Shown one piece after another: positions 1 through 11,391 of a stretch of DNA of 11,391 bases (within the stretch, counting starts at the first letter, position 1; the number at the start of each line of letters is the position of its first letter). The position numbers were made by a program, and so were the translations under genes. Under the pieces are notes generated by a model. That model had not been told where the DNA came from. It ran no database searches and saw only the letters and a program-made list of their open reading frames with translations. This stretch comes from a virus. Taxonomy: Duplodnaviria; Heunggongvirae; Uroviricota; Caudoviricetes. The stretch lies in IMG/VR virus record IMGVR_UViG_2671180676_000005. The stretch is one strand, 5' to 3'.

Positions 1-40
1 TAAGTTAGCGCTTATGGGGATTTCTCCCCCGCCGGGTCTC

Positions 41-196
41 TTACTCCTCAGGTTCGTAAGCTGTGAAGACAGCGACCTCCGTCTGGCCGGTTCGGATTCG
101 TACCTCGCAGAGGTCTTTCCTCGTTACCAGTGCCGTCACTATGACGGTTAAACAGATGACGATCAGGGCGATTAACATCGCCTTTTGCTGCTTCAT
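41..196 (-). CDS. hokD: Hok/Gef-family type I membrane toxin (51 aa), HokD/RelF
   Basis: Not in the ORF track (<60 aa). Manual minus-strand translation gives MKQQKAMLIALIVICLTVIVTALVTRKDLCEVRIRTGQTEVAVFTAYEPEE, which matches my recall of K-12 HokD (RelF). Lies directly downstream of relE, as in the relBEF operon. Confidence 0.9.
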   Translation of the reverse strand: MKQQKAMLIALIVICLTVIVTALVTRKDLCEVRIRTGQTEVAVFTAYEPEE

Positions 197-267
197 AGCC
201 TGCTTCTCCTGTCAACGCAAAGCAGAAGTGTCACCTTCGGTGCGAAACAGAGATGTCATGCTTTGGT

Positions 268-555
268 TCAGAGAATGCGTTTGACCGCCTCGCTATATAC
301 TTCCGAGCGTTCTCTTTTCCCAACAGAAATCACGAAAACGACAACTTTCTCGTCTATAACCTGGTATACAAGGCGATAGCCTGAAGACCGGAGCTTAATC
401 TTGTAACAATCAGGCATACCACGGAGCTTGTTTGCTTCAATCCGGGGTGACTCAAGTACTTCAACCAGCTTCTTTTTCAACTGTTCACGTACCGTCGAGC
501 CCAGCTTTCGCCATTCCTTTAGTGCCCGCTCGTCAAAATCCAGAAAATACGCCAT
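268..555 (-). CDS. relE: RelE mRNA interferase toxin (95 aa)
   Basis: ORF track 95-aa protein MAYFLDFDERALKEWRKLG... is near-identical to recalled K-12 RelE (one E/D difference). Start ATG shares one base with the relB stop (TGATG). Confidence 0.95.
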   Translation of the reverse strand: MAYFLDFDERALKEWRKLGSTVREQLKKKLVEVLESPRIEANKLRGMPDCYKIKLRSSGYRLVYQVIDEKVVVFVISVGKRERSEVYSEAVKRIL

Positions 556-794
556 CAGAGTTCATCCAGCGTCACACGTACTGGCTTAGGATTACGAAGC
601 CGTTCTTTCACTATCTCCACAAGTTCAGCATCTTCATCACTCAGGAGTGTCTGTTTGAACGGCAAGCGTTCATTGTCAGCGATATACTCGAGCATGAGAC
701 GAAGCGCTTCAGAAGGAGTTACACCCATTTTTTCAAGCGCGGCGTAAGAACGCGCTTTAAGTTCATCGTCAATACGCAGGTTAATGCTACCCAT
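555..794 (-). CDS. relB: RelB antitoxin (79 aa)
   Basis: ORF track 79-aa protein MGSINLRIDDELKARSYAALEKMGVTPSEALRL... matches recalled RelB. AGGTG Shine-Dalgarno (SD) lies upstream. Confidence 0.95.
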   Translation of the reverse strand: MGSINLRIDDELKARSYAALEKMGVTPSEALRLMLEYIADNERLPFKQTLLSDEDAELVEIVKERLRNPKPVRVTLDEL

Positions 795-805
795 GTCTTA
801 CACCT

Positions 806-831
806 CTTGTAATTACAAATGTCATTACAAG
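806..831. promoter_or_regulatory. relO operator: TTGTAAT-type repeats including the 12-bp palindrome TTGTAATTACAA
   Basis: Sequence cttgtaattacaaatgtcattacaag sits 12-37 bp upstream of the relB start codon; it matches the known RelB/RelE operator motif. The promoter itself was not mapped. Confidence 0.7.
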
Positions 832-1124
832 TATCGCACTACAACATGCTTAGGGCAAGTCACGAAGGAAGTCAGAAAGTAGTCGTAAGAACGGTGATCA
901 CTGTCCGCTTTGTGCCAGGAGCAGCCATTGCTAAGTCCATCCTGTATTGTGCAGGTCAGCTCGTTTTTAAAGAGTCCGGCCATCATCTTACTGGTACAGA
1001 CACCATATACTTTGTGACGGTCAGGCTACATATGCACAACTCAACTTATTCATCTATTTTTTGCTTTAGCATGTCAGTGTTGCTTTCTCGTCGGCGGGTG
1101 AGCGGTGACCTGACCTGTCGATAA
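819..1124 (+). CDS. Hypothetical ORF in the position of K-12 ydfV (101 aa); doubtful as a real protein
   Basis: ORF of 101 aa between relB and flxA, where K-12 annotates ydfV. It overlaps the relBE operator region and its sequence is not protein-like; no SD was checked. Confidence 0.25.
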   Translation: MSLQVSHYNMLRASHEGSQKVVVRTVITVRFVPGAAIAKSILYCAGQLVFKESGHHLTGTDTIYFVTVRLHMHNSTYSSIFCFSMSVLLSRRRVSGDLTCR

Positions 1125-1276
1125 AGGAACGTAACACGTTTTATGCAACACCCGCATGCGGCAGAAAATTATTGCCGAACGTTTACCCCTGTCAACAAGC
1201 TTTACTTTCTGAGGCGCGCCAGCCCGCGAGGAAAACAATCTGAACATCAAACAATTAATGACACAAGAAATACGAT

Positions 1277-1303
1277 TAAAGATTTTTTTGTGCATGCCGA
1301 TAG
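1277..1303 (+). promoter_or_regulatory. Sigma-28 (FliA) promoter of flxA
   Basis: TAAAGATT (1277-1284), 11-nt spacer, GCCGATAG (1296-1303), against the class 3 flagellar consensus TAAAGTTT-N11-GCCGATAA. AAAAGGAG SD follows at 1313-1320. Confidence 0.75.
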
Positions 1304-1326
1304 TGCTTTTTTAAAAGGAGAAATCT

Positions 1327-1659
1327 ATGTCTGTCACAATTCAGGGAAATACCTCAACCGTTATTTCAAACAACTCCGCCCCGGAAGGAACATCAGAAAT
1401 AGCCAAAATCACAAGACAAATTCAGGTGCTGACTGAAAAGCTTGGGAAAATCTCATCGGAAGAGGGGATGACGACACAGCAGAAAAAAGAAATGGCTGCA
1501 TTGGTACAGAAGCAAATTGAAAGCCTCTGGGCTCAACTGGAGCAGTTGTTAAGGCAGCAGGCAGAGAAAAAGAATGAAGACGCGACAGTTCAGCCTGATA
1601 AAAAAGAAGAGAAAAAAGACGATACAAATACCGCTGGCACCATTGATATTTACGTCTAA
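1327..1659 (+). CDS. flxA: FlxA, FliA-regulated protein of unknown function (110 aa)
   Basis: ORF track 110-aa protein MSVTIQGNTSTVISNNSAPEG... matches recalled K-12 FlxA. Preceded by the sigma-28 promoter and a strong SD. Confidence 0.9.
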   Translation: MSVTIQGNTSTVISNNSAPEGTSEIAKITRQIQVLTEKLGKISSEEGMTTQQKKEMAALVQKQIESLWAQLEQLLRQQAEKKNEDATVQPDKKEEKKDDTNTAGTIDIYV

Positions 1660-1673
1660 GTGACAGCCGTATT

Positions 1674-1697
1674 GTGGCCCTCATCGGGCCACTTTTC
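1674..1697 (+). terminator. Rho-independent terminator of flxA
   Basis: GTGGCCC-tcatc-GGGCCAC perfect 7-bp GC-rich stem followed by TTTT, 15 nt after the flxA stop. Confidence 0.65.
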
Positions 1698-2095
1698 GCC
1701 ATCAGCCTTTTCTTTAAAGACATATTATCTTTGTATCATTTCTGATAGTTAACATTACAAGATATAAGTAATGGACGCACTCCCAATTAGTCTATTTAAA
1801 TCGCCACGAGTTTAACTGACAACCCATGATCAATTATGAATTGCAACTATTTCTGTAGTCACTTTTGTGGGGACAGTCCACAAAACTGCCAACTTCCGCT
1901 TCTTGCTCTTAGCGGACATTAGCATAGGCTATTTACCATAACGCCTCATTACGCGCACCGCCCAGACTGACTCAGCGCGTTTCTGGCATATCCCCGGTAA
2001 AACAAGTAACAAACCACCCGAAAATGAACACCAGAAACGCGACTTAAGAATCTACCCTATGAATGGATATGCACTCAACCGAATCGATCTTGGTT

Positions 2096-3409
2096 TCAAT
2101 CTTTTTTATCGGGATCAGGCTTCTTTTTAGGTAACTTCGGGGGCTTAACTTGCTGATGACTTTGCGTTCGGCGCGTAAGCCAGGGATGGTCAGCTTTAGG
2201 TTTAACATAGTATTTTGAGCGTAAATCAATACGGGCATTATCCACTCGTTCATGGACACTCTTTTCATCATCCAGTGGTATAGGCTCCGGGCCATCAACA
2301 TACTTTTCCCAGCCCAGCGCTTTCCCGTCATACAGAACGTTAATTTCACCGTCAAAGTTCTCGCATACAGTAACAACCGAATGCCTAAGTCGATATCCCC
2401 GGCCCTCACTGCGTACCTGAAACGCACTGCTTTTGTACTGGAAAGTGAGATTTTTAGACAGAACGCGCTTCGCCTGTAGGCTGAAGATATAACCCAGTTC
2501 CTCTTCAGAATGGTGCACATCAAGATGAGCATTATCAGTAGTACGAGGCGACGTAGCGAACCGGTTGTTATAGGCTTCAATAAAGGTCGGCAACCATGCA
2601 TTTGCTGTTTCAATATCACTGATATTCTGAAGCCGCATTTCTTTGACCAGCCTGTCCTGTAGTGTCTGATTGGCGCGCTCTACCCGCCCTTTTGCCTGCG
2701 GGCTGTTGGCATGGATTGGCTCGATGCCCAGTGTCTTTATCGCACGAGTGAACTGGGTCAGCTCACCTTCCCGCTCTGGGTTATTTACCCTGAATATACT
2801 GTGTCTATCAGAGTAGAGAGCGAGCGGTACGCCATGATCATTAAGGTAACCCCGGAGGGTTTCCATGTAAGCCCGGGTTGTTTCAGCAGGCACAAAACGC
2901 AACGCCATCAACGCACTGGTGGCATCATCAATGAAAACGATCAGTGTACATCTGGGGCCTCGATTTTCAAACCAGTCATGAGGTGAGCCATCAATCTGGA
3001 TCAGTTCACCGTAAGATGGTCGTCGCATGCGGCGTTGATATATACGGGCAATTTTACGACGGCGTTCACGCCATAACCCCTCTTCTATCATCCACTTTCT
3101 GAGAGTTTCAACGGATAAAGATAAACCGTGTATCTCGCGCAATTTTTCGCACGCAAACGTAGGTCCAAAATCAGCGTAACGGCCTTTGAGGAGTGAAATT
3201 ACTGTTGCTCTGAATTCAGTAGAAAAGGAATTATTAGGACGCTTTCCACGTCGGTGGGAAACCAGACCAGAAGGCCCTTCATTTCTATACCGTTGCACCA
3301 GACGTTTAACCTGCCGAATAGAAATGCCAATGCGTGCCGCAGCTTGTTCCTGAATAATCTGAAGTCGGTGGAGTTCCTTATGACTCATCGTAACAGTCTC
3401 TTTGATCAT
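2096..3409 (-). CDS. DDE (integrase-fold) transposase-like protein, 437 aa; N-terminal HTH; family not resolved (IS481-like or ISNCY/IS1202-like)
   Basis: ORF track 437-aa protein with an N-terminal HTH-like segment (ISIRQVKRLVQRY) and an integrase-core signature (KGRVERANQTLQDRL). Element boundaries are not defined. K-12 annotates an integrase fragment (intK/ydfW) at this position. Confidence 0.75.
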   Translation of the reverse strand: MIKETVTMSHKELHRLQIIQEQAAARIGISIRQVKRLVQRYRNEGPSGLVSHRRGKRPNNSFSTEFRATVISLLKGRYADFGPTFACEKLREIHGLSLSVETLRKWMIEEGLWRERRRKIARIYQRRMRRPSYGELIQIDGSPHDWFENRGPRCTLIVFIDDATSALMALRFVPAETTRAYMETLRGYLNDHGVPLALYSDRHSIFRVNNPEREGELTQFTRAIKTLGIEPIHANSPQAKGRVERANQTLQDRLVKEMRLQNISDIETANAWLPTFIEAYNNRFATSPRTTDNAHLDVHHSEEELGYIFSLQAKRVLSKNLTFQYKSSAFQVRSEGRGYRLRHSVVTVCENFDGEINVLYDGKALGWEKYVDGPEPIPLDDEKSVHERVDNARIDLRSKYYVKPKADHPWLTRRTQSHQQVKPPKLPKKKPDPDKKD

Positions 3410-3743
3410 GAAAAATCCCCCAGAGAATTGTCTGGGGACATTTTAGAATGGTTCAAAGGGGACATTACAGCTTGGTGTTAACAATAGCCTGCTTCTCCGT
3501 GCCTTTCGGCACGTAAGAGGCTAACCTACATGTGTCTAGCATGAAATTGGCCTCAGATTAATGTTAAGCGTCTTGCAGGACGCGTAATGTTAACTGGGGC
3601 TTTTCTCTATCTGCCGTTGGTGTCCATGCCCGAGGCAGATAGCCTCAAGCACCCGCAGTCATTCTACTTAACTAAGATTTCCCCGCAAACCGTTTTTGTC
3701 CAGCACAGTAAATATCCAACTAAACCAATGGAGTTCGCTGTAT

Positions 3744-3923
3744 TTACCGCCAGTATTCAATGCACATGACCGCCATGAACACCCCTAAAAAAAGGGCATT
3801 TATATATCCAAATATTAATATCAAAACATCAACTTTTTCCATATACCTTGCTGTGAAGATGATGGGCATACATGATGCGAACAACCAGAACGCAACAAAC
3901 AAAAACTGCAATGCGTTTTTCAT
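3744..3923 (-). CDS. Small hydrophobic two-TM peptide (59 aa), function unknown
   Basis: The ORF track 72-aa frame contains an internal ATG with a consensus AGGAGG SD 6 nt upstream (taggaggaataATG). Product MKNALQFLFVAFWLFASCMPIIFTARYMEKVDVLILIFGYINALFLGVFMAVMCIEYWR has two hydrophobic stretches. Confidence 0.5.
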   Translation of the reverse strand: MKNALQFLFVAFWLFASCMPIIFTARYMEKVDVLILIFGYINALFLGVFMAVMCIEYWR

Positions 3924-4107
3924 TATTCCTCCTACAATCAATGTGCAATTACATTTAAACACACCTCAATTTGGCCGGACATATAAATATCTAAACCAGA
4001 AAAAATCACTTACATAGCGTTACAAACTCTTTAGTCTAAAGGTTCATCGTAAAACATTCCCCATACTTATCAGTCCGTTCCGCGCCAGGTAGCTCATTGC
4101 CTTATCT

Positions 4108-4137
4108 GGCAACCTGTAATCAGGTTTCCGCTTTTTC
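4108..4137 (+). terminator. Candidate weak intrinsic terminator, or regulatory hairpin
   Basis: AACCTG-taat-CAGGTT stem-loop (4111-4126) followed by tccgcTTTTT. No obvious plus-strand gene upstream. Confidence 0.25.
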
Positions 4138-4947
4138 AGTTGGCTGGTCGTTTAACCGACATAGTTAATCCATTAATCTAGTTGCCGGATGTTGGTGGAT
4201 TTTCGCGTTTTAGTTGTTCATAAAAGTGCACAGCTTTAACCAGTTCTTCTGATGTAACTGGGACTGGTGAGGCAGTGAATAAGGCCTGAATTTGATAGTT
4301 CGGCCTGTCGTTACAATCCTCTTTTTTCGGTACATATTTCCAGTCACCAGACCACTACTTCCCCTGAAAGTCCGTAACGCCTTTTTTCACGTAGCGATAT
4401 CGCCATGCCACTGGTTTTGCTTGCCCCGCCGTTTCATGCCCTTCCTGATAATTAATCTCGCTCATTCATCGCCCCACTCATCACAATATGCTTCGACCGG
4501 AGTTTTTCCCGCTTCATAGTCATCACGCTAGGATTCGACATCAGCAGCACTTCCACCGCGTAACTCACCATAGTCCATTAATAGTTCATCCCGCTCTTCA
4601 AAACTGATGTTATATTTAGCTGAACAAAAATCAGCCACTTTGTTCTTCCTCATCGTCTTTTATTTCGTGGTATGAGTAATTGCAGTAGTTAAAGAAAATT
4701 TCTTATGCTCCGTCATGAATTTCCTCAGGTGTTGCGTCATCGTCCACTTCGAATACATCCTCAAAATCTCCACCAGCTATTCCCGTTTCAATAATAATTT
4801 TGAACTTTCGCATTTCACTACCGCCCTTTCGGGCGGCCTCCTGATGTTCTGAGGGTGCAGAAATCCATCCGGTTAAGTATTAAATTTTATTTACAGAACT
4901 GAATTTAATTATTCAGATATACGTATCTGTAGCCTTACGAATCTACT

Positions 4948-4997
4948 CACTGGATGCCTCTTTCATAAAAATAATCCAGTGGGTTTTATCGTTTTTT
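4948..4997 (+). terminator. Candidate hairpin plus T-tract (terminator-like)
   Basis: CACTGGAT (4948-4955) and ATCCAGTG (4974-4981) form an 8-bp stem with an 18-nt loop, followed by gguuuuaucguuuuuu. The large loop makes a terminator call uncertain. Confidence 0.25.
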
Positions 4998-5075
4998 CCC
5001 TGTTCGTTGACAGATAACAGGTTTTCTGTCTGTCAGTGCCAGAATCTGGCTTACCGGTATTTGCGTTTCATTCCA

Positions 5076-5432
5076 TTAAAAAATCAGAACGCCGTGCGGC
5101 CTCAACACCCGAAAGGCTTCTTTAAATCTCTGTCGCGAATCATCACGCCAGGCATCTTTATTCAGCCGTCCATATTTCTTTCCCATCCAGGCGTTATCAC
5201 CAACACTCTCAAGATGCGGAGGGTCTAATACAACCATCGAAAAAGATGCGTCTGCAAATGATAATGCACGAAAATCTGCGATAATGTCAGGGCTGATAAT
5301 CAAGCGTCTCCCATTGCGTAATGTGTATCCTTCTTTTCTGATATCGCTGAATATCGCCCGTTCGTCAGACTTATCGAACCAGAACATGCGGCTGCCACAG
5401 CACATATCAAGAATGGTTGCCGGTGCACTCAC
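5076..5432 (-). CDS. DNA methyltransferase-like protein (SAM-binding motif, then DPPH motif IV), apparently C-terminally truncated; possible pseudogene
   Basis: 118-aa ORF with LDMCCGSR (motif I-like) and VLDPPHL (motif IV-like). GTG start overlaps the upstream stop as GTGA. The in-frame TAA is followed by 31 more sense codons in the same frame. Confidence 0.6.
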   Translation of the reverse strand: MSAPATILDMCCGSRMFWFDKSDERAIFSDIRKEGYTLRNGRRLIISPDIIADFRALSFADASFSMVVLDPPHLESVGDNAWMGKKYGRLNKDAWRDDSRQRFKEAFRVLRPHGVLIF

Positions 5433-5851
5433 TGCGCCACGTCCTGAAAATTACCCTGATAGAAAGCCAGTATGCGCTGCATAACTTCGCTCTTCCGGCA
5501 CTCGCGACAGATTATGTTTAGGCGACTGTCGTAGCGACGTATTTCTCCGTCAGGTGATGACCAGATAAGGTCCGGATCAACCACAGCAGGTTTCTTCACC
5601 TTTGCCCTCGAGAGTTTTTTGCGGGCGTTTTGCCAGTCCTTACGCGCCTGTTCAGAGGGGAATAACCCGTAGCCGGAGTTGTATACATCGCCACTGGCTA
5701 CCAGCTCTCTGGCAAGAACGCTCATCAGATATCTAGTCGCACCTGTTTTAGCTTCCAGTTGCCGTAACGTCTCACGGCCGCTCTGGCGCACGAGTTCCAC
5801 CACCTGCCATTTAATTTTTTCCCGCTCTTCTTGTGTAAAAACTTTTGCCAC
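5429..5851 (-). CDS. Hypothetical protein (140 aa), basic, with a CxxC near the C-terminus; in the position of a lambdoid P-like or accessory replication gene
   Basis: ORF track 140 aa. GTG start with a strong AAGGGGGA SD 4-5 nt upstream. Translationally coupled to the downstream methyltransferase-like gene. Confidence 0.55.
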   Translation of the reverse strand: MAKVFTQEEREKIKWQVVELVRQSGRETLRQLEAKTGATRYLMSVLARELVASGDVYNSGYGLFPSEQARKDWQNARKKLSRAKVKKPAVVDPDLIWSSPDGEIRRYDSRLNIICRECRKSEVMQRILAFYQGNFQDVAQ

Positions 5852-5891
5852 AAGTCCCCCTTAAAATTACCTCATGACCTGAAATCAACAC

Positions 5892-6911
5892 TTATCCTCT
5901 GAAACCAGGCGGAATTTCTGTATCCGGTTCAGAAATATGATTAACACAACGCTGTACAGGTGAACGTCCCAGGCGGATGACCAGTTCGTCCCATTTTTCG
6001 CGGAGCTTTGACGGGCTCATGATGTTTTTTACCCAGAATGGATCTCGCTGAACCCGACCAAACATTTCGCAAATTTGTCTGTGGCTTCTGCCATCCAGCA
6101 TCCGCATTGTGCGCACGTCATTGGCCCAGGCAGTCCAGTTAGGCTCTTTTGGTCGCATGATCTCGCCATCATCACTGGCTGCCTGTTCGTAGAGACCCAC
6201 GATCCGCCCCCAGATCCACTGCGCACACGCCAAATCCTCCCTGCTACCCCACTGGCGTTTTTTCGCACTAAACACAACCGCGTCGGAGTTCCGGGTTAAA
6301 AAATCCTGTTCAGTCGTCTGCGGGTCCGGTTGCGAAGCTTCCGGACGAAAAGTGTTTTTATTCTCTGTAGTAATCTCTGTTGTATTCTCTGTAAGATCAT
6401 CAGGCCATTTTGACCCGATGACATTGGGTCGTTTTGAACCAATGGAGCGTTTCATTTTGACCTCTTCCATCGTGTCATTTTGACCTGATGGAGCGGCGCA
6501 TTTTGAACCGATGGATTCGCTCAATTTGCCACCATCTAAAAGCTCGCTCCCATAGTTGATCGTGTAGAAATTGGTCATATCGCGCTTTGATTTATTGAGC
6601 TTTTCACAACGCAAAAGCCCCAGCGTTTTCAGACTTGCAAACGCGCGCTTTAACGTTGACTCTGACCAGAATGGGAACTGTTCCAGCCATTGTTCCGTTG
6701 TGTTATAAATCCAGCGAACACCATCACATTCCATGCCGGAGTTGGTATCTCTCAACCAGTAGTGCAGTTGTTGCAAAACAATGGCTTCGTTTAAGCCAAT
6801 TTTCATTGCCAGCTGCGTGTTTATAACCAGTGGGCGTTCAGCAAAAAGAAGGCTCATAATTCCATCCAGCTTTTTGTTGGTATTGCTGTCGATACGCAAG
6901 TTTGAAAGCAA
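5892..6911 (-). CDS. Phage replication initiation protein (lambda O-like: N-terminal DNA-binding domain, iteron-encoded linker, C-terminal domain)
   Basis: ORF track 339 aa. Five 23-bp-spaced iterons lie inside the gene and encode repeated SIGSK/IGSK peptide segments, as in lambda O with ori-lambda. The start is uncertain: internal ATGs at 6857 and 6806 would reduce the overlap with the upstream gene. Confidence 0.75.
   Translation of the reverse strand: MLSNLRIDSNTNKKLDGIMSLLFAERPLVINTQLAMKIGLNEAIVLQQLHYWLRDTNSGMECDGVRWIYNTTEQWLEQFPFWSESTLKRAFASLKTLGLLRCEKLNKSKRDMTNFYTINYGSELLDGGKLSESIGSKCAAPSGQNDTMEEVKMKRSIGSKRPNVIGSKWPDDLTENTTEITTENKNTFRPEASQPDPQTTEQDFLTRNSDAVVFSAKKRQWGSREDLACAQWIWGRIVGLYEQAASDDGEIMRPKEPNWTAWANDVRTMRMLDGRSHRQICEMFGRVQRDPFWVKNIMSPSKLREKWDELVIRLGRSPVQRCVNHISEPDTEIPPGFRG
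6406..6515. repeat. Replication-origin iterons: five copies of CATTTTGA(C/A)C-N-(G/A)ATGGA at 23-24 bp spacing
   Basis: Copies start at 6406, 6430, 6453, 6476 and 6499, with a weaker sixth near 6522. Adjacent are three TCTCTGT repeats (6361-6393, 12-bp spacing) and an A/T-rich stretch. Confidence 0.7.
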
Positions 6912-7359
6912 TTGCTTTTTCTATAAGTTCGTCAGTTTCACGATCCACTACGGCAGGATCAGCAAAAAGCAGTCCGGACTCCACCACATCGCCATATTCT
7001 TTGTTTAACCCGGCGATCATGCACGTGATGCTTTTTCCGTCAGTAATTTCACGATACAACCTGAAATCATTAATCCGGATAGCCTCCATAATTGCAGGCA
7101 CTAGCGCCGTGAACTTTTCACGCTTATCCCTGGTGTCGATAGCCTTCCAGCGTTCAAATATCTTCACTCGATTAACGCCAAGCGCTCGCTGATCAATCGC
7201 GCCACCTTCATATGTGACACGCTGAACATCGATGTTCGGGCGCTCTTTCAAAGCCCAGAATGCTTCAGTGATTAATATCGTCGCCTGCTCCTGTGTCATT
7301 CCTGGTCGACATATCCAGGCATCCAGAGCCTCACGAGCCTGTTCAGGAGTGATTTTCAT
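6838..7359 (-). CDS. Hypothetical protein (173 aa) directly downstream of the cro-like gene dicC; positional analogue of YdaT/YdfX-type proteins
   Basis: ORF track 173 aa, overlapping the dicC stop by 17 nt. K-12 has the pseudogene ydfX at this position. Homology is not verified. Confidence 0.5.
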   Translation of the reverse strand: MKITPEQAREALDAWICRPGMTQEQATILITEAFWALKERPNIDVQRVTYEGGAIDQRALGVNRVKIFERWKAIDTRDKREKFTALVPAIMEAIRINDFRLYREITDGKSITCMIAGLNKEYGDVVESGLLFADPAVVDRETDELIEKAIAFKLAYRQQYQQKAGWNYEPSFC

Positions 7360-7573
7360 TGTTCAACCGCCCCGCCCGCTTCGTCTTACGATATTCATCA
7401 TAAACTTTGGGATCATACTGAAGCTCCCCGCCAGATGCCTCCTGTAGACGCATCGCGCGACCTTCGGGAACTAAATCCCCTTTCCAGCTATAAAGCGAAG
7501 CCAAACGAATACCTGCTGCTTGTGCAAGTTTTGTTTTTGAACCGAAATACAAAAGAGCGTCAGTTTTAAGCAT
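7343..7573 (-). CDS. dicC: DicC, Cro-like HTH regulator (76 aa)
   Basis: 76-aa ORF MLKTDALLYFGSKTKLAQAAGIRLASLYSW... divergent from dicA; length and sequence match recalled DicC. Sigma-70-like promoter on the minus strand: TTGACT (7629-7634), 17 bp, TATCTT (7606-7611). Confidence 0.9.
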   Translation of the reverse strand: MLKTDALLYFGSKTKLAQAAGIRLASLYSWKGDLVPEGRAMRLQEASGGELQYDPKVYDEYRKTKRAGRLNNENHS

Positions 7574-7589
7574 TTAAAACACCTTTATT

Positions 7590-7654
7590 GTTAGTCATAA
7601 CTAACAAGATAGATGTTAACAAAAACATAGTCAATACGATTTAGCATTAGCTAA
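7590..7654. promoter_or_regulatory. dicC-dicA divergent promoter/operator region with palindromic operator-like sites
   Basis: GTTAGTcataACTAAC (7590-7605), TGTTAACA (7614-7621), and TTAGCATTAGCTAA (7641-7654, containing the palindrome TTAGCTAA); the dicC promoter elements overlap this interval. Confidence 0.6.
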
Positions 7655-7656
7655 CT

Positions 7657-8064
7657 ATGGAAACAAAAAATTTAACTATCGGCGAACGCATCAGGTATCG
7701 TCGGAAAAACCTCAAACACACCCAAAGGTCTCTTGCTAAAGCCCTGAAAATCTCCCATGTGTCTGTATCACAATGGGAACGGGGTGATAGTGAACCTACA
7801 GGGAAGAACCTTTTTGCCCTCAGCAAAGTATTGCAATGCTCACCAACATGGATTCTATTTGGCGATGAAGACAAGCAACCAACACCACCTGTTGAGAAGC
7901 CAGTTGCCTTATCCCCCAAAGAACTAGAGCTCCTTGAGCTGTTTAATGCACTGCCAGAATCAGAACAGGATACCCAGCTCGCCGAAATGCGAGCTCGAGT
8001 AAAAAACTTCAATAAACTCTTTGAAGAATTACTAAAAGCCCGTCAGCGGACAAATAAAAGATAA
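7657..8064 (+). CDS. dicA: DicA, repressor of the division inhibitor dicB (P22 C2-like HTH, 135 aa)
   Basis: 135-aa ORF METKNLTIGERIRYRRKNLKHTQRSLAKALKISHVSVSQWERG... matches recalled DicA. Confidence 0.95.
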   Translation: METKNLTIGERIRYRRKNLKHTQRSLAKALKISHVSVSQWERGDSEPTGKNLFALSKVLQCSPTWILFGDEDKQPTPPVEKPVALSPKELELLELFNALPESEQDTQLAEMRARVKNFNKLFEELLKARQRTNKR

Positions 8065-8124
8065 CATCATCAATGAGTTATCTTTTACCACATCAATTAT
8101 GTTAGCTATAGCATACAAAATCAC

Positions 8125-8153
8125 TTGACCGATATGTTAGTCATGGCTAATCT
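8125..8153 (+). promoter_or_regulatory. Promoter of the ydfABC-dicF-dicB operon with embedded operator
   Basis: TTGACC (8125-8130), 17-bp spacer, TAATCT (8148-8153). The spacer contains TGTTAGTCATGGCTAA, which resembles the TTAGT/TTAGC operator half-sites of the dicA-dicC intergenic region. Confidence 0.6.
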
Positions 8154-8230
8154 TGTTTGCATCAACACACCGCACGGTGTTCTCAGCAAACAGTTCCGCT
8201 ACCCCAGCGTTAAGGGGAAATGAGGTCAGC

Positions 8231-8386
8231 ATGGATACTATCGATCTTGGCAACAACGAATCTCTGGTGTACGGCGTGTTTCCAAACCAGGACGGCACGT
8301 TCACCGCAATGACGTATACCAAAAGCAAAACGTTTAAAACCGAAAATGGTGCCCGTCGCTGGCTGGAAAGAAACTCAGGTGAGTGA
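8231..8386 (+). CDS. ydfA: YdfA (51 aa), Qin prophage small protein
   Basis: Internal ATG of the ORF track 77-aa frame with a GAGG SD. Product MDTIDLGNNESLVYGVFPNQDGTFTAMTYTKSKTFKTENGARRWLERNSGE; same position and length as K-12 ydfA. Confidence 0.8.
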   Translation: MDTIDLGNNESLVYGVFPNQDGTFTAMTYTKSKTFKTENGARRWLERNSGE

Positions 8387-8387
8387 T

Positions 8388-8516
8388 ATGGATTTCGACA
8401 CAATCATGGAAAAGGCTTACGAAGAATACTTCGAAGGCCTTGCCGAAGGCGAAGAAGCTCTCAGCTTCAGTGAGTTTAAACAGGCGCTTTCCAGTTCGGC
8501 AAAATCTAACGGCTGA
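8388..8516 (+). CDS. ydfB: YdfB (42 aa)
   Basis: Manual translation: MDFDTIMEKAYEEYFEGLAEGEEALSFSEFKQALSSSAKSNG. Starts 1 nt after the ydfA stop. Not in the ORF track (<60 aa). Confidence 0.75.
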   Translation: MDFDTIMEKAYEEYFEGLAEGEEALSFSEFKQALSSSAKSNG

Positions 8517-8545
8517 TAAGCGAAACAGCACCGCGAGGAATCAGT

Positions 8546-8764
8546 ATGCAGAAACGAGAACCCGTCATCATCGCGCCAGACTATACCGATGATGAACTTT
8601 ATGAGTGGATGCGCCAGAAAATTAATGCAGCGCAGGATCTGAAATGGGCTAATGAAGCCAGGGCTAAGCAGGCTGAAAATCTGTCCGCTCTGGAGCAGGA
8701 TATCACCAATCTGGAAAAAGCAGCGGCATTAAGCATTGCCAGAATGATTACATACCCGCGTTAG
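8546..8764 (+). CDS. ydfC: YdfC (72 aa)
   Basis: ORF track 72 aa MQKREPVIIAPDYTDDELYEWMRQKINAAQDLKWANEARAKQ..., in the K-12 order ydfA-ydfB-ydfC. Confidence 0.8.
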   Translation: MQKREPVIIAPDYTDDELYEWMRQKINAAQDLKWANEARAKQAENLSALEQDITNLEKAAALSIARMITYPR

Positions 8765-9104
8765 TAGCTAATCAACAAAGCTAAGGTTAGTAATTAAGGA
8801 GTTCTCCACGGGTGAGGTGGAGTGCGTGCGCCGGACACGGGTGCGCATCCGGAACTGACAGTTTACTGAAAGGATATTTCCCTGAAAAGTCAGACCATAA
8901 CGCGAAAGCGCACGGCGAGGTAGCTGGTTCATAGATAGCCTGTCGTTAAATTTTCGTCGACCGTGCGCTTCCGGTTGTGGCAACCCGCGAAATGGCGCGG
9001 CGGTAAGTATGGCGGGGTTATTCCTTCCCCGTTGAGGACACCGGGTTGTCAGGTTGACCATACGCTTAAGTGACAACCCCGCTGCAACGCCCTCTGTTAT
9101 CAAT

Positions 9105-9162
9105 TTTCTGGTGACGTTTGGCGGTATCAGTTTTACTCCGTGACTGCTCTGCCGCCCTTTTT
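9105..9162 (+). ncRNA. dicF: DicF small regulatory RNA (antisense inhibitor of ftsZ translation)
   Basis: tttctggtgacgtttggcggtatcagttttactccgtgactgctctgccgccctttt matches recalled DicF; ends in GGCGG...CCGCC plus a U-tract. Lies between ydfC and dicB. The 5' end is approximate. Confidence 0.8.
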
Positions 9163-9331
9163 AAAGTGAATTTTGTGATGTGGTGAATGCGGCTGAGCGC
9201 ACGCGGAACAGTTAAAACCAAAAACAGTGTTATGGGTGGATTCTCTGTATCCGGCGTTAATTGTTAACTGGTTAACGTCACCTGGAGGCACCAGGCACTG
9301 CATCACAAAATTCATTGTTGAGGACGCGATA

Positions 9332-11391
<2,060 letters not shown>

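Follow-up and report, generated by a model that had tools for sequence, protein, structure and literature searches.

The stretch of DNA analysed here (the window) comprises 11,391 nucleotides of a virus of the Caudoviricetes (IMG/VR record IMGVR_UViG_2671180676_000005); in the region examined, it is 100% identical to Escherichia phage PhiR42_1, an ECOR13 prophage. Inside the gene of a replication initiator, it carries an array of iterons followed by three AT-rich 12-nt units. Judged from the sequence, a lambdoid prophage of the Qin-like / mEp460-like type has, with a probability of about 85%, its replication origin in these repeats, within the gene of its initiator. Origins of this kind are well known, and the present one, as yet uncharacterised, would not surprise a specialist. 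What is unexpected is the conservation of the 12-nt unit (12-mer) across phyla. The initiator gene and its parts, in gene order, are:

5892..6857, minus strand: replication initiator gene, 321 aa plus stop, 100% identical to 'DNA replication protein O' of Escherichia phage PhiR42_1
6534..6857, minus strand: N-terminal domain (N-domain), aa 1-108, probably a winged helix, putatively iteron-binding
6514..6536, minus strand: iteron 1, first in gene order, degenerate; core 6521-6531, gene strand TGGCAAATTGA
6491..6513, minus strand: iteron 2; core 6498-6508; encodes S-I-G-S-K
6468..6490, minus strand: iteron 3; core 6475-6485; near-palindrome CATC...GATG; encodes G-Q-N-D
6445..6467, minus strand: iteron 4; core 6452-6462; encodes V-K-M-K
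6422..6444, minus strand: iteron 5; core 6429-6439; near-palindrome; encodes I-G-S-K
6398..6420, minus strand: iteron 6; core 6405-6415; near-palindrome; encodes I-G-S-K
6356..6394, minus strand: three 12-nt units after the iterons, gene strand ACAGAGAATACA, ACAGAGATTACT and ACAGAGAATAAA
6327..6533, minus strand: interdomain linker, aa 109-177, predicted to be disordered; its coding sequence runs across all iterons and the 12-mer array
5976..6290, minus strand: C-terminal domain (C-domain), aa ~190-294, homologous to the lambda O C-terminal domain
5895..5957, minus strand: DnaT-like tail, the last 21 residues (vqrcVNhiSEPDteIPPGFRG)

Iterons in the initiator gene

The iteron array consists of six 23-bp units at 6398-6536, five good and one degenerate, spaced by 23, 23, 23, 23 and 24 bp. 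The iterons sit at nt 326-452 of the initiator gene, and their core reads CATTTTGAC on the plus strand. A repeat search and Tandem Repeats Finder (TRF) delimited the 23-bp family at 6398-6420, 6422-6444, 6445-6467, 6468-6490 and 6491-6513. Scanning the 11.4 kb for CATTTTGACCNGATG with up to three mismatches yielded five matches, all within one 108-bp stretch (6406-6513) and in phase at 24, 23, 23 and 23 bp; shuffled sequences gave a mean of 1.45 scattered matches. The same scan detected no second iteron cluster in the window. A preliminary description of this DNA had counted five copies at a period of 23-24 bp. The phasing holds, while the count rises to six, an alignment of relatives having added the degenerate copy at 6514-6536. 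This iteron 1 lies in phase, 23 bp from iteron 2, and is better kept in relatives as GAGGTCAAAGTGA.

Three of the units are near-palindromes centred on an A-tract (CATYrGGyC-AAAAyG-rCCyrATG), with inverted-repeat arms that are 78% complementary. Palindromic units might alternatively act in RNA, as hairpins in the initiator mRNA controlling translation or stability, with the 12-mers as an RNA motif. The minus-strand transcript of 6350-6540 indeed folds better than 200 of 200 shuffles (z = -3.4) and forms one hairpin per palindromic iteron. Dyad-symmetric protein-binding sites yield the same signal, however. Two of the five good units keep one half-site only and form no hairpin, the 12-mer array is predicted to be unpaired, and no Rfam family matches at the repeats. 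The homologous elements of lambda and of RepA_N plasmids act as DNA. An RNA-level element is considered very unlikely.

The AT-rich 12-mer array

The 12-bp family of three copies was found by the repeat search and TRF at 6359-6394; the array lies at nt 466-501 of the initiator gene. On the gene strand, the consensus of the unit is nCAGAGAnTACn. Three TCTCTGT repeats at 12-bp spacing and an A/T-rich stretch had been reported beforehand; the units are confirmed at 6356-6394, and the GC content is 0.325 at 6360-6399. The unwinding-element check proposed at that time placed the least stable 41-mer of the gene at 6355-6395, with a nearest-neighbour free energy (dG) of -45.6 kcal/mol (z = +2.4 in comparison to the window). 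The array at 6356-6394 is a probable DNA unwinding or helicase entry element in this analysis, possibly read as single-stranded DNA (ssDNA). The trinucleotide 5'-CTG-3' is the preferred start site of E. coli DnaG, and the complement of the array presents it every 12 nt. A promoter scan located no promoter-like site in or near the repeats.

The 12-mer across relatives

In IMG/VR, an exact-pattern scan located neighbouring pairs of the 12-mer in at least 120 contigs. The matches listed, which were retrieved by the DNA motif, comprise 111 usable loci. Among them, the array always lies mid-gene in an open reading frame (ORF) of 220-450 aa, mostly 250-360 aa. The N-domains belong to one BLAST superfamily, with 109 of the 111 loci linked, and form 21 clusters at 60% identity. 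Every one of these 21 clusters shows 3-6 iterons of a type specific to it, and the same array adjoins them directly downstream; the C-domains are shuffled relative to the N-domains.

A motif-independent set was compiled from relatives found by protein alone, using tblastn against phages (L126-L139) and a genome scan with the N-domain alignment (L140-L219). The N-domain was found by tblastn in 155 phage records across phyla, and the alignment scan of viral contigs recovered 100%-identical E. coli prophage copies only. At least two CAGA[GT]A units 9-15 nt apart were present in 27 of 49 non-redundant protein-retrieved genes, and at least three in 19 of the 49. Mononucleotide-shuffled genes gave means of 0.15 and 0, respectively. 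Protein-retrieved phages of Erwinia, Pseudomonas, Klebsiella, Staphylococcus, Bacillus, Flavobacterium and Burkholderia display the same layout of iterons and array. The 12-mer is common to phages of Enterobacterales, Pseudomonas, Bacillaceae and others, with CAGATA variants in phages of Flavobacterium, Burkholderia and Bacteroides. A full-text literature search returned no paper on the 12-mer (ACAGAGATTAC) or its peptide (TENTTE and variants), only unrelated ones; the coverage was incomplete, and an earlier description may exist.

Plasmid matches were also obtained. They were rejected as proof of autonomous replication, since most are phage-sized circles. A true plasmid of 15 kb, bearing ParA, from Candidatus Paracaedibacter acanthamoebae encodes a 418-aa relative of the N-domain (L303, 5736-6992). 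Two repeats of the CCGACAAAATGTCGG type occur in the gene, and the AT-rich stretch behind them contains one degenerate unit, ACAAAGAATAC. From its sequence, this gene is probably the Rep gene and origin of that plasmid. The 16-kb E. coli 'plasmid' pZ1322PEC0161-2 (L302) is a phage fragment. Its initiator has the same C-domain and DnaT-like tail together with a different N-domain of helix-turn-helix type. The iterons there are of a separate type, TTGACCCGTCAA, a CAGAGA array is missing, and the frame appears to be interrupted by a stop.

Constraint on DNA and on protein

The repeats could be constrained at the protein level only, as IGSK and T-E-x-T repeats of the linker, with the DNA period as a by-product. 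Three iteron copies do encode IGSK, the 12-mers encode TENT, TEIT and TENK, and T-E-x-T recurs in relatives. The iterons fall in all three reading frames, however, because 23 is not a multiple of 3. Besides the three IGSK readings, they yield GQND, VKMK and GKL; the repeated IGSK linker of the preliminary description is valid for three copies only.

The codon-position test comprised 18 non-redundant homologues with 72-97% nucleotide identity and no indels in the first 500 nt. Mean pairwise identities at the first, second and third codon positions were 0.87/0.94/0.58 in the N-domain, 0.92/0.93/0.87 in the iteron cores and 0.97/0.83/0.95 in the 12-mers. Third positions are more conserved in the iteron cores than in the N-domain (Mann-Whitney p = 3e-6), and none of 10,000 equally phased block sets from the N-domain reached the core value. 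At the peptide level, the order is reversed: identity among the homologues is 0.68 in the linker and 0.86 in the N-domain, despite the higher conservation of the linker DNA. Synonymous scrambling of the DNA motif in homologues had been named beforehand as one observation that would refute an origin. It was not found; synonymous sites are conserved and the peptide varies.

For the codon count in protein-retrieved homologues, arrays were defined by the peptide alone, as at least two occurrences of ([TSPA]E.[TS]). Glutamate is encoded in these arrays by GAG 51 times and by GAA once, compared to 454:587 in the remainder of these genes (Fisher p = 6e-17). Each unit begins with a codon ending in CA (ACA 39, CCA 9, TCA 3, GCA 1), so that the amino acid changes while the third base is fixed. 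A few relatives (L131, L200, L187 and L170) have a unit spacing of 10-11 nt, which entails a frame change. Since third bases are fixed while amino acids vary, the 12-mer is read from these sequences as a DNA motif with the consensus (A/C)CAGAGAnTAC(A/T) and a period of 12. The observations support a constraint on the repeats as DNA, not as protein. A constraint on the protein only is contradicted by the codon analyses and is regarded as extremely improbable.

The initiator gene and its protein

The gene matches PHROG 391, 'replication initiation O-like', with an E-value of 1.3e-91, and its product has no Pfam match at E <= 0.01. The repeats had been placed correctly within the initiator ORF, but not its length of 339 aa. 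That ORF, with a TTG start, is probably an over-extension. A start at ATG 6857 and a true length of 321 aa are probable from sequence comparison, because the PhiR42_1 record annotates ATG 6857 and the homologues share the N-terminus MSLL. Among deposited phage genomes, the gene occurs in PhiR42_1 (100%), HannyBb (98.5%) and mEp460_ev081 (97.2%). Of 5426 complete E. coli genomes, 1849 have it intact or nearly so (coverage of 80% or more), and the Prokaryotic Genome Annotation Pipeline (PGAP) labels it 'hypothetical protein'. A very common prophage replication gene at 5892-6857, devoid of a Pfam domain and hypothetical in PGAP, constitutes an annotation gap.

An AlphaFold (AF2) model was computed from a shallow alignment of 14 close relatives. 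It predicts two folded domains and a disordered linker with moderate confidence, the mean predicted local distance difference test (pLDDT) score being 56. Linker residues 109-177, exactly the part encoded by iterons and array, have a pLDDT of about 25. The N-domain is modelled at pLDDT 54-76 with the topology H-H-b-b-H-H-b-b, an order that is probably compatible with a winged helix. Its top Foldseek matches are weak (E 0.013-0.05, probability 1.0, target template modelling score 0.56). They are 4pql, 4pt7 and 5kbj, which represent plasmid initiator N-domains and a Rep-DNA complex. Neither RepA_N nor DnaD was matched in Pfam by the N-domain at E <= 0.01. The C-domain (aa ~147-294) aligned by BLASTP to lambda O with 34% identity over 148 aa (E = 1e-26) and is, on this alignment, a true lambda O homologue.

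The DnaT-like tail and helicase loading

The initiator ends in 21 residues of which 14 are shared with the C-terminus of the E. coli primosomal protein DnaT, SEPD and IPPGFRG among them (phmmer; PDB chains 2ru8, 6aep and 9zbt). The near-identity is confined to these residues, and the rest of the initiator is unrelated to DnaT. The NCBIfam DnaT model scored 16.2 bits against a cutoff of 201 and covered only residues 320-339 of the 339-aa ORF. An identification of the initiator as DnaT was rejected, as the PDB and NCBIfam matches are limited to the tail. The label 'Primosomal protein I' on relatives derives from the tail alone, because the similarity to DnaT is confined there. In the literature searched, including the 2026 preprimosome and DnaT 84-153 papers, the role of this tail within DnaT is not stated.

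Tails of the form [IV]P.GFR[GS] terminate several different C-domain types in relatives. Non-redundant loci (L002-L219) were examined for P-loop proteins (180 aa or longer) encoded by either of the two ORFs that follow the initiator, using a pattern broad enough for GTGKN-type DnaC-like proteins. Such a protein followed 2 of 59 tailed genes and 29 of 93 tail-less genes (Fisher p = 1.8e-5, with kinship ignored). At L096, a tail and a DnaC-like gene exceptionally occur together. This distribution suggests that, through the tail, the initiator has direct access to primosome or loader proteins of the host.

Comparison with known origins

Lambda has four iterons, while the Stx phages 933W and P27 have six (PMC7466680). 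The annotated iterons of lambda span nt 349-433 of O and are followed by an AT-rich region. Here, too, the initiator ORF contains the iterons, at roughly equivalent codons, and an AT-rich region adjoins immediately downstream in the direction of transcription. Both systems have dyad units of ~19-23 bp with a CAAAAYG-type A-tract centre (TCCCTCAAAACGAGGGA in lambda, GGGTCAAAATGGCC here), a gene in a cro-cII-O operon and a homologous C-domain. The ori-lambda architecture claimed in the preliminary description, iterons and then an AT-rich element at the gene position known from lambda, is borne out. All points of that description's interpretation open to a computational check were upheld. Several features are unlike lambda. 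The N-terminal DNA-binding domain is unrelated at the sequence level, six iterons follow a strict 23-bp period, and three regular 12-mers take the place of an irregular purine-rich tract with a single CAGAGA. Furthermore, no P gene follows, and the initiator has the extra DnaT-like tail.

In the RepA_N plasmid pSK41, the Rep boxes are central in rep, and the central domain encoded by the origin is a dispensable linker (PMC5703833). The N-domain of RepA_N initiators binds the Rep boxes, the C-domain is variable and host-specific, and modules are swapped at the linker (PMC5703833). The prophage resembles these theta plasmids of Gram-positive bacteria (pSK41, pTZ2162) in that origin DNA encodes a flexible linker, and the best, weak fold matches of its N-domain (4pql, 4pt7, 5kbj) may point in the same direction. 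It differs in the lack of a RepA_N Pfam match, the weakness of the structural match, the Gram-negative host, the prophage context and the lambda O-type C-domain.

Phage genes annotated as 'DnaD-like helicase loader' or 'replication initiation protein', for example those of Staphylococcus phages 96 and phiIPLA88 and of phages of Bacillus and Listeria, encode N-domains 46-52% identical to the one described here. Within these genes, iterons specific to them, centred on CAAAATG/CAAATTG, precede units of the CAGAGA type. Their C-domains are different, and most are succeeded by phage helicase or loader genes. We infer from these sequences that the DnaD-like phage genes carry in-gene origins; no paper was found that maps an origin in them. 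The architecture of the prophage origin is probably lambda-like in layout and C-domain and RepA_N/DnaD-like in the N-domain.

The repeats of DNA unwinding elements (DUEs) vary in length, spacing and sequence between replicons, and plasmid Rep proteins bind DUE single strands specifically (PMC10797057). Like the DUE 13-mers of oriC and of RK2 oriV, the 12-mers are short, strand-asymmetric repeats in the least stable DNA beside initiator sites. Unlike the 13-mers, one motif, nCAGAGAnTACn with a period of 12, is kept across fully diverged iterons and in hosts spanning phyla.

Proposed mechanism and alternative roles

The initiator would be made from the cro-cII-O operon. Its N-domain, probably as dimers, may bind the six 23-bp, partly palindromic, A-tract-centred iterons at 6398-6536. 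The nucleoprotein complex would then destabilise the adjoining AT-rich 12-mer array at 6356-6394, where the host replicative helicase could be loaded by a putative route. Since no phage P, DnaC or DnaB gene follows, host proteins of the primosome or for helicase loading are presumably recruited without an intermediary, by the lambda-O-like C-domain and the DnaT-like tail.

Alternatively, the iterons may be bound by the initiator or a different phage protein for a purpose other than replication initiation, for example to autoregulate the operon, to control copy number or exclude related phages by titration, or as a site resembling a centromere. Plasmid iteron arrays serve in control and incompatibility as well, and cloned lambda origin fragments inhibit rep-lambda phages (PMC3349717). 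Computation of the kind applied here cannot separate a binding site from an origin. On the other hand, the array is placed exactly as the proven origins of lambda and pSK41, beside the least stable DNA of the gene, and the window contains no other iteron cluster. The recurrence of iterons plus array in all 21 N-domain clusters of the motif-retrieved matches listed, and of at least two units in 27 of 49 protein-retrieved genes, fits an essential cis element. Such roles would moreover be compatible with origin function. Because of the position and the adjoining unstable DNA, a non-origin role as the sole function is less likely and is rated as improbable.

The interpretation as an origin has to be weighed against several points. 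Binding, unwinding and replication from this sequence are predictions. The initiator is followed by DUF977/LygF; no P, DnaC or DnaB gene and no P-loop or P-like protein comes after it, which makes the loading step conjectural. The N-domain has no sequence similarity to that of lambda O (hhalign probability 0.5%) and no Pfam match. Its model is of moderate confidence only (mean pLDDT 56), with weak fold matches (E 0.013 or worse). The homologue comparisons are phylogenetically non-independent, and the palindromic iterons predict RNA hairpins (z = -3.4).

A broader proposal, for which the odds are put somewhat below even, concerns the 12-mer. Two to five copies of nCAGAGAnTACn just after the iterons may represent a previously unrecognised, sequence-specific origin element of a superfamily of phage, prophage and some plasmid initiators, ranging from Enterobacteria and Pseudomonas to Bacillaceae and Staphylococcus. 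It would be kept as DNA while iterons and C-domains change freely, and its reader, probably acting on ssDNA, would be either a conserved N-domain surface or a replisome component of universal occurrence. The phage helicase loader would be replaced in one branch by a mimic of the DnaT tail.

Gene neighbourhood and the Qin prophage of K-12

The initiator gene has the following neighbours:

7657-8064, divergent from the minus-strand operon: cI/DicA-like repressor gene
7606-7634: promoter-like site, from which the cro/DicC and cII/YdaT-like genes are read towards the origin
7343-7573, minus strand: cro/DicC gene, upstream in the same operon
6838-7359, minus strand: cII/YdaT-like gene, upstream in the same operon
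5429..5851, minus strand: DUF977 / LygF / 'Ren-like' gene, downstream (Pfam DUF977, 5e-29; PHROG 142)

The DUF977/LygF product is neither a helicase nor a loader. A fragment of a methyltransferase gene is located at 5076-5432 (minus strand, 118 aa). It matches only positions 52-165 of the 229-position PHROG DNA methyltransferase profile and looks truncated.

The preliminary description had contrasted the window with the Qin remnant of K-12, and the comparison bears this out. Qin of MG1655 is 100% identical to window positions 17-2280 and 99.9% identical to 7080-9561. It lacks 2281-7079 by a clean deletion of 4.8 kb (L300, position 6358/6359). The missing segment holds the initiator, the origin, DUF977, the methyltransferase fragment, a sok RNA and a transposase; the K-12 remnant has neither origin nor initiator. 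The deletion junction falls within K-12 ydfX, apparently what is left of the cII/YdaT-like gene after truncation. K-12 ydfW, which ends just before this junction, is the counterpart of window 2096-2245, where a 437-aa ORF at 2096-3409 (minus strand) has its 3' end. For this ORF, the PhiR42_1 record has two pieces, a transposase and a 'mobile element protein', and therefore an insertion sequence is assumed between flxA and the replication module.

Within the segment that K-12 lacks, a sok antitoxin RNA was detected at 3483-3654 (minus strand; Rfam, 104 bits), which implies a second toxin-antitoxin locus of the hok/sok type at this site. The small RNA DicF is encoded at 9106-9157 (plus strand; Rfam, 76.7 bits), as in K-12 Qin. 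TRF reported two-copy tandem repeats at 808-830 and 9336-9360 with periods of 12 and 13, respectively, which may be due to chance. A run of 328 N is masked at 10513-10840.

Significance

A function is assigned to a gene that PGAP calls 'hypothetical protein' in about one third of the complete E. coli genomes. Locating the origin of a very common prophage family helps to judge which Qin-like prophages still replicate; that of K-12 cannot. The parts most worth following up are the conservation of the 12-mer and the mimic of the DnaT tail. The latter provides a handle on what that part of DnaT contacts in replication restart. The 12-mer element lies in a disordered linker and is therefore cleanly testable by synonymous recoding. 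A fixed 12-mer beside changing iterons is a simple signature for the prediction of phage origins across phyla, and suggests that origin opening or helicase loading includes a step that is conserved and sequence-specific.

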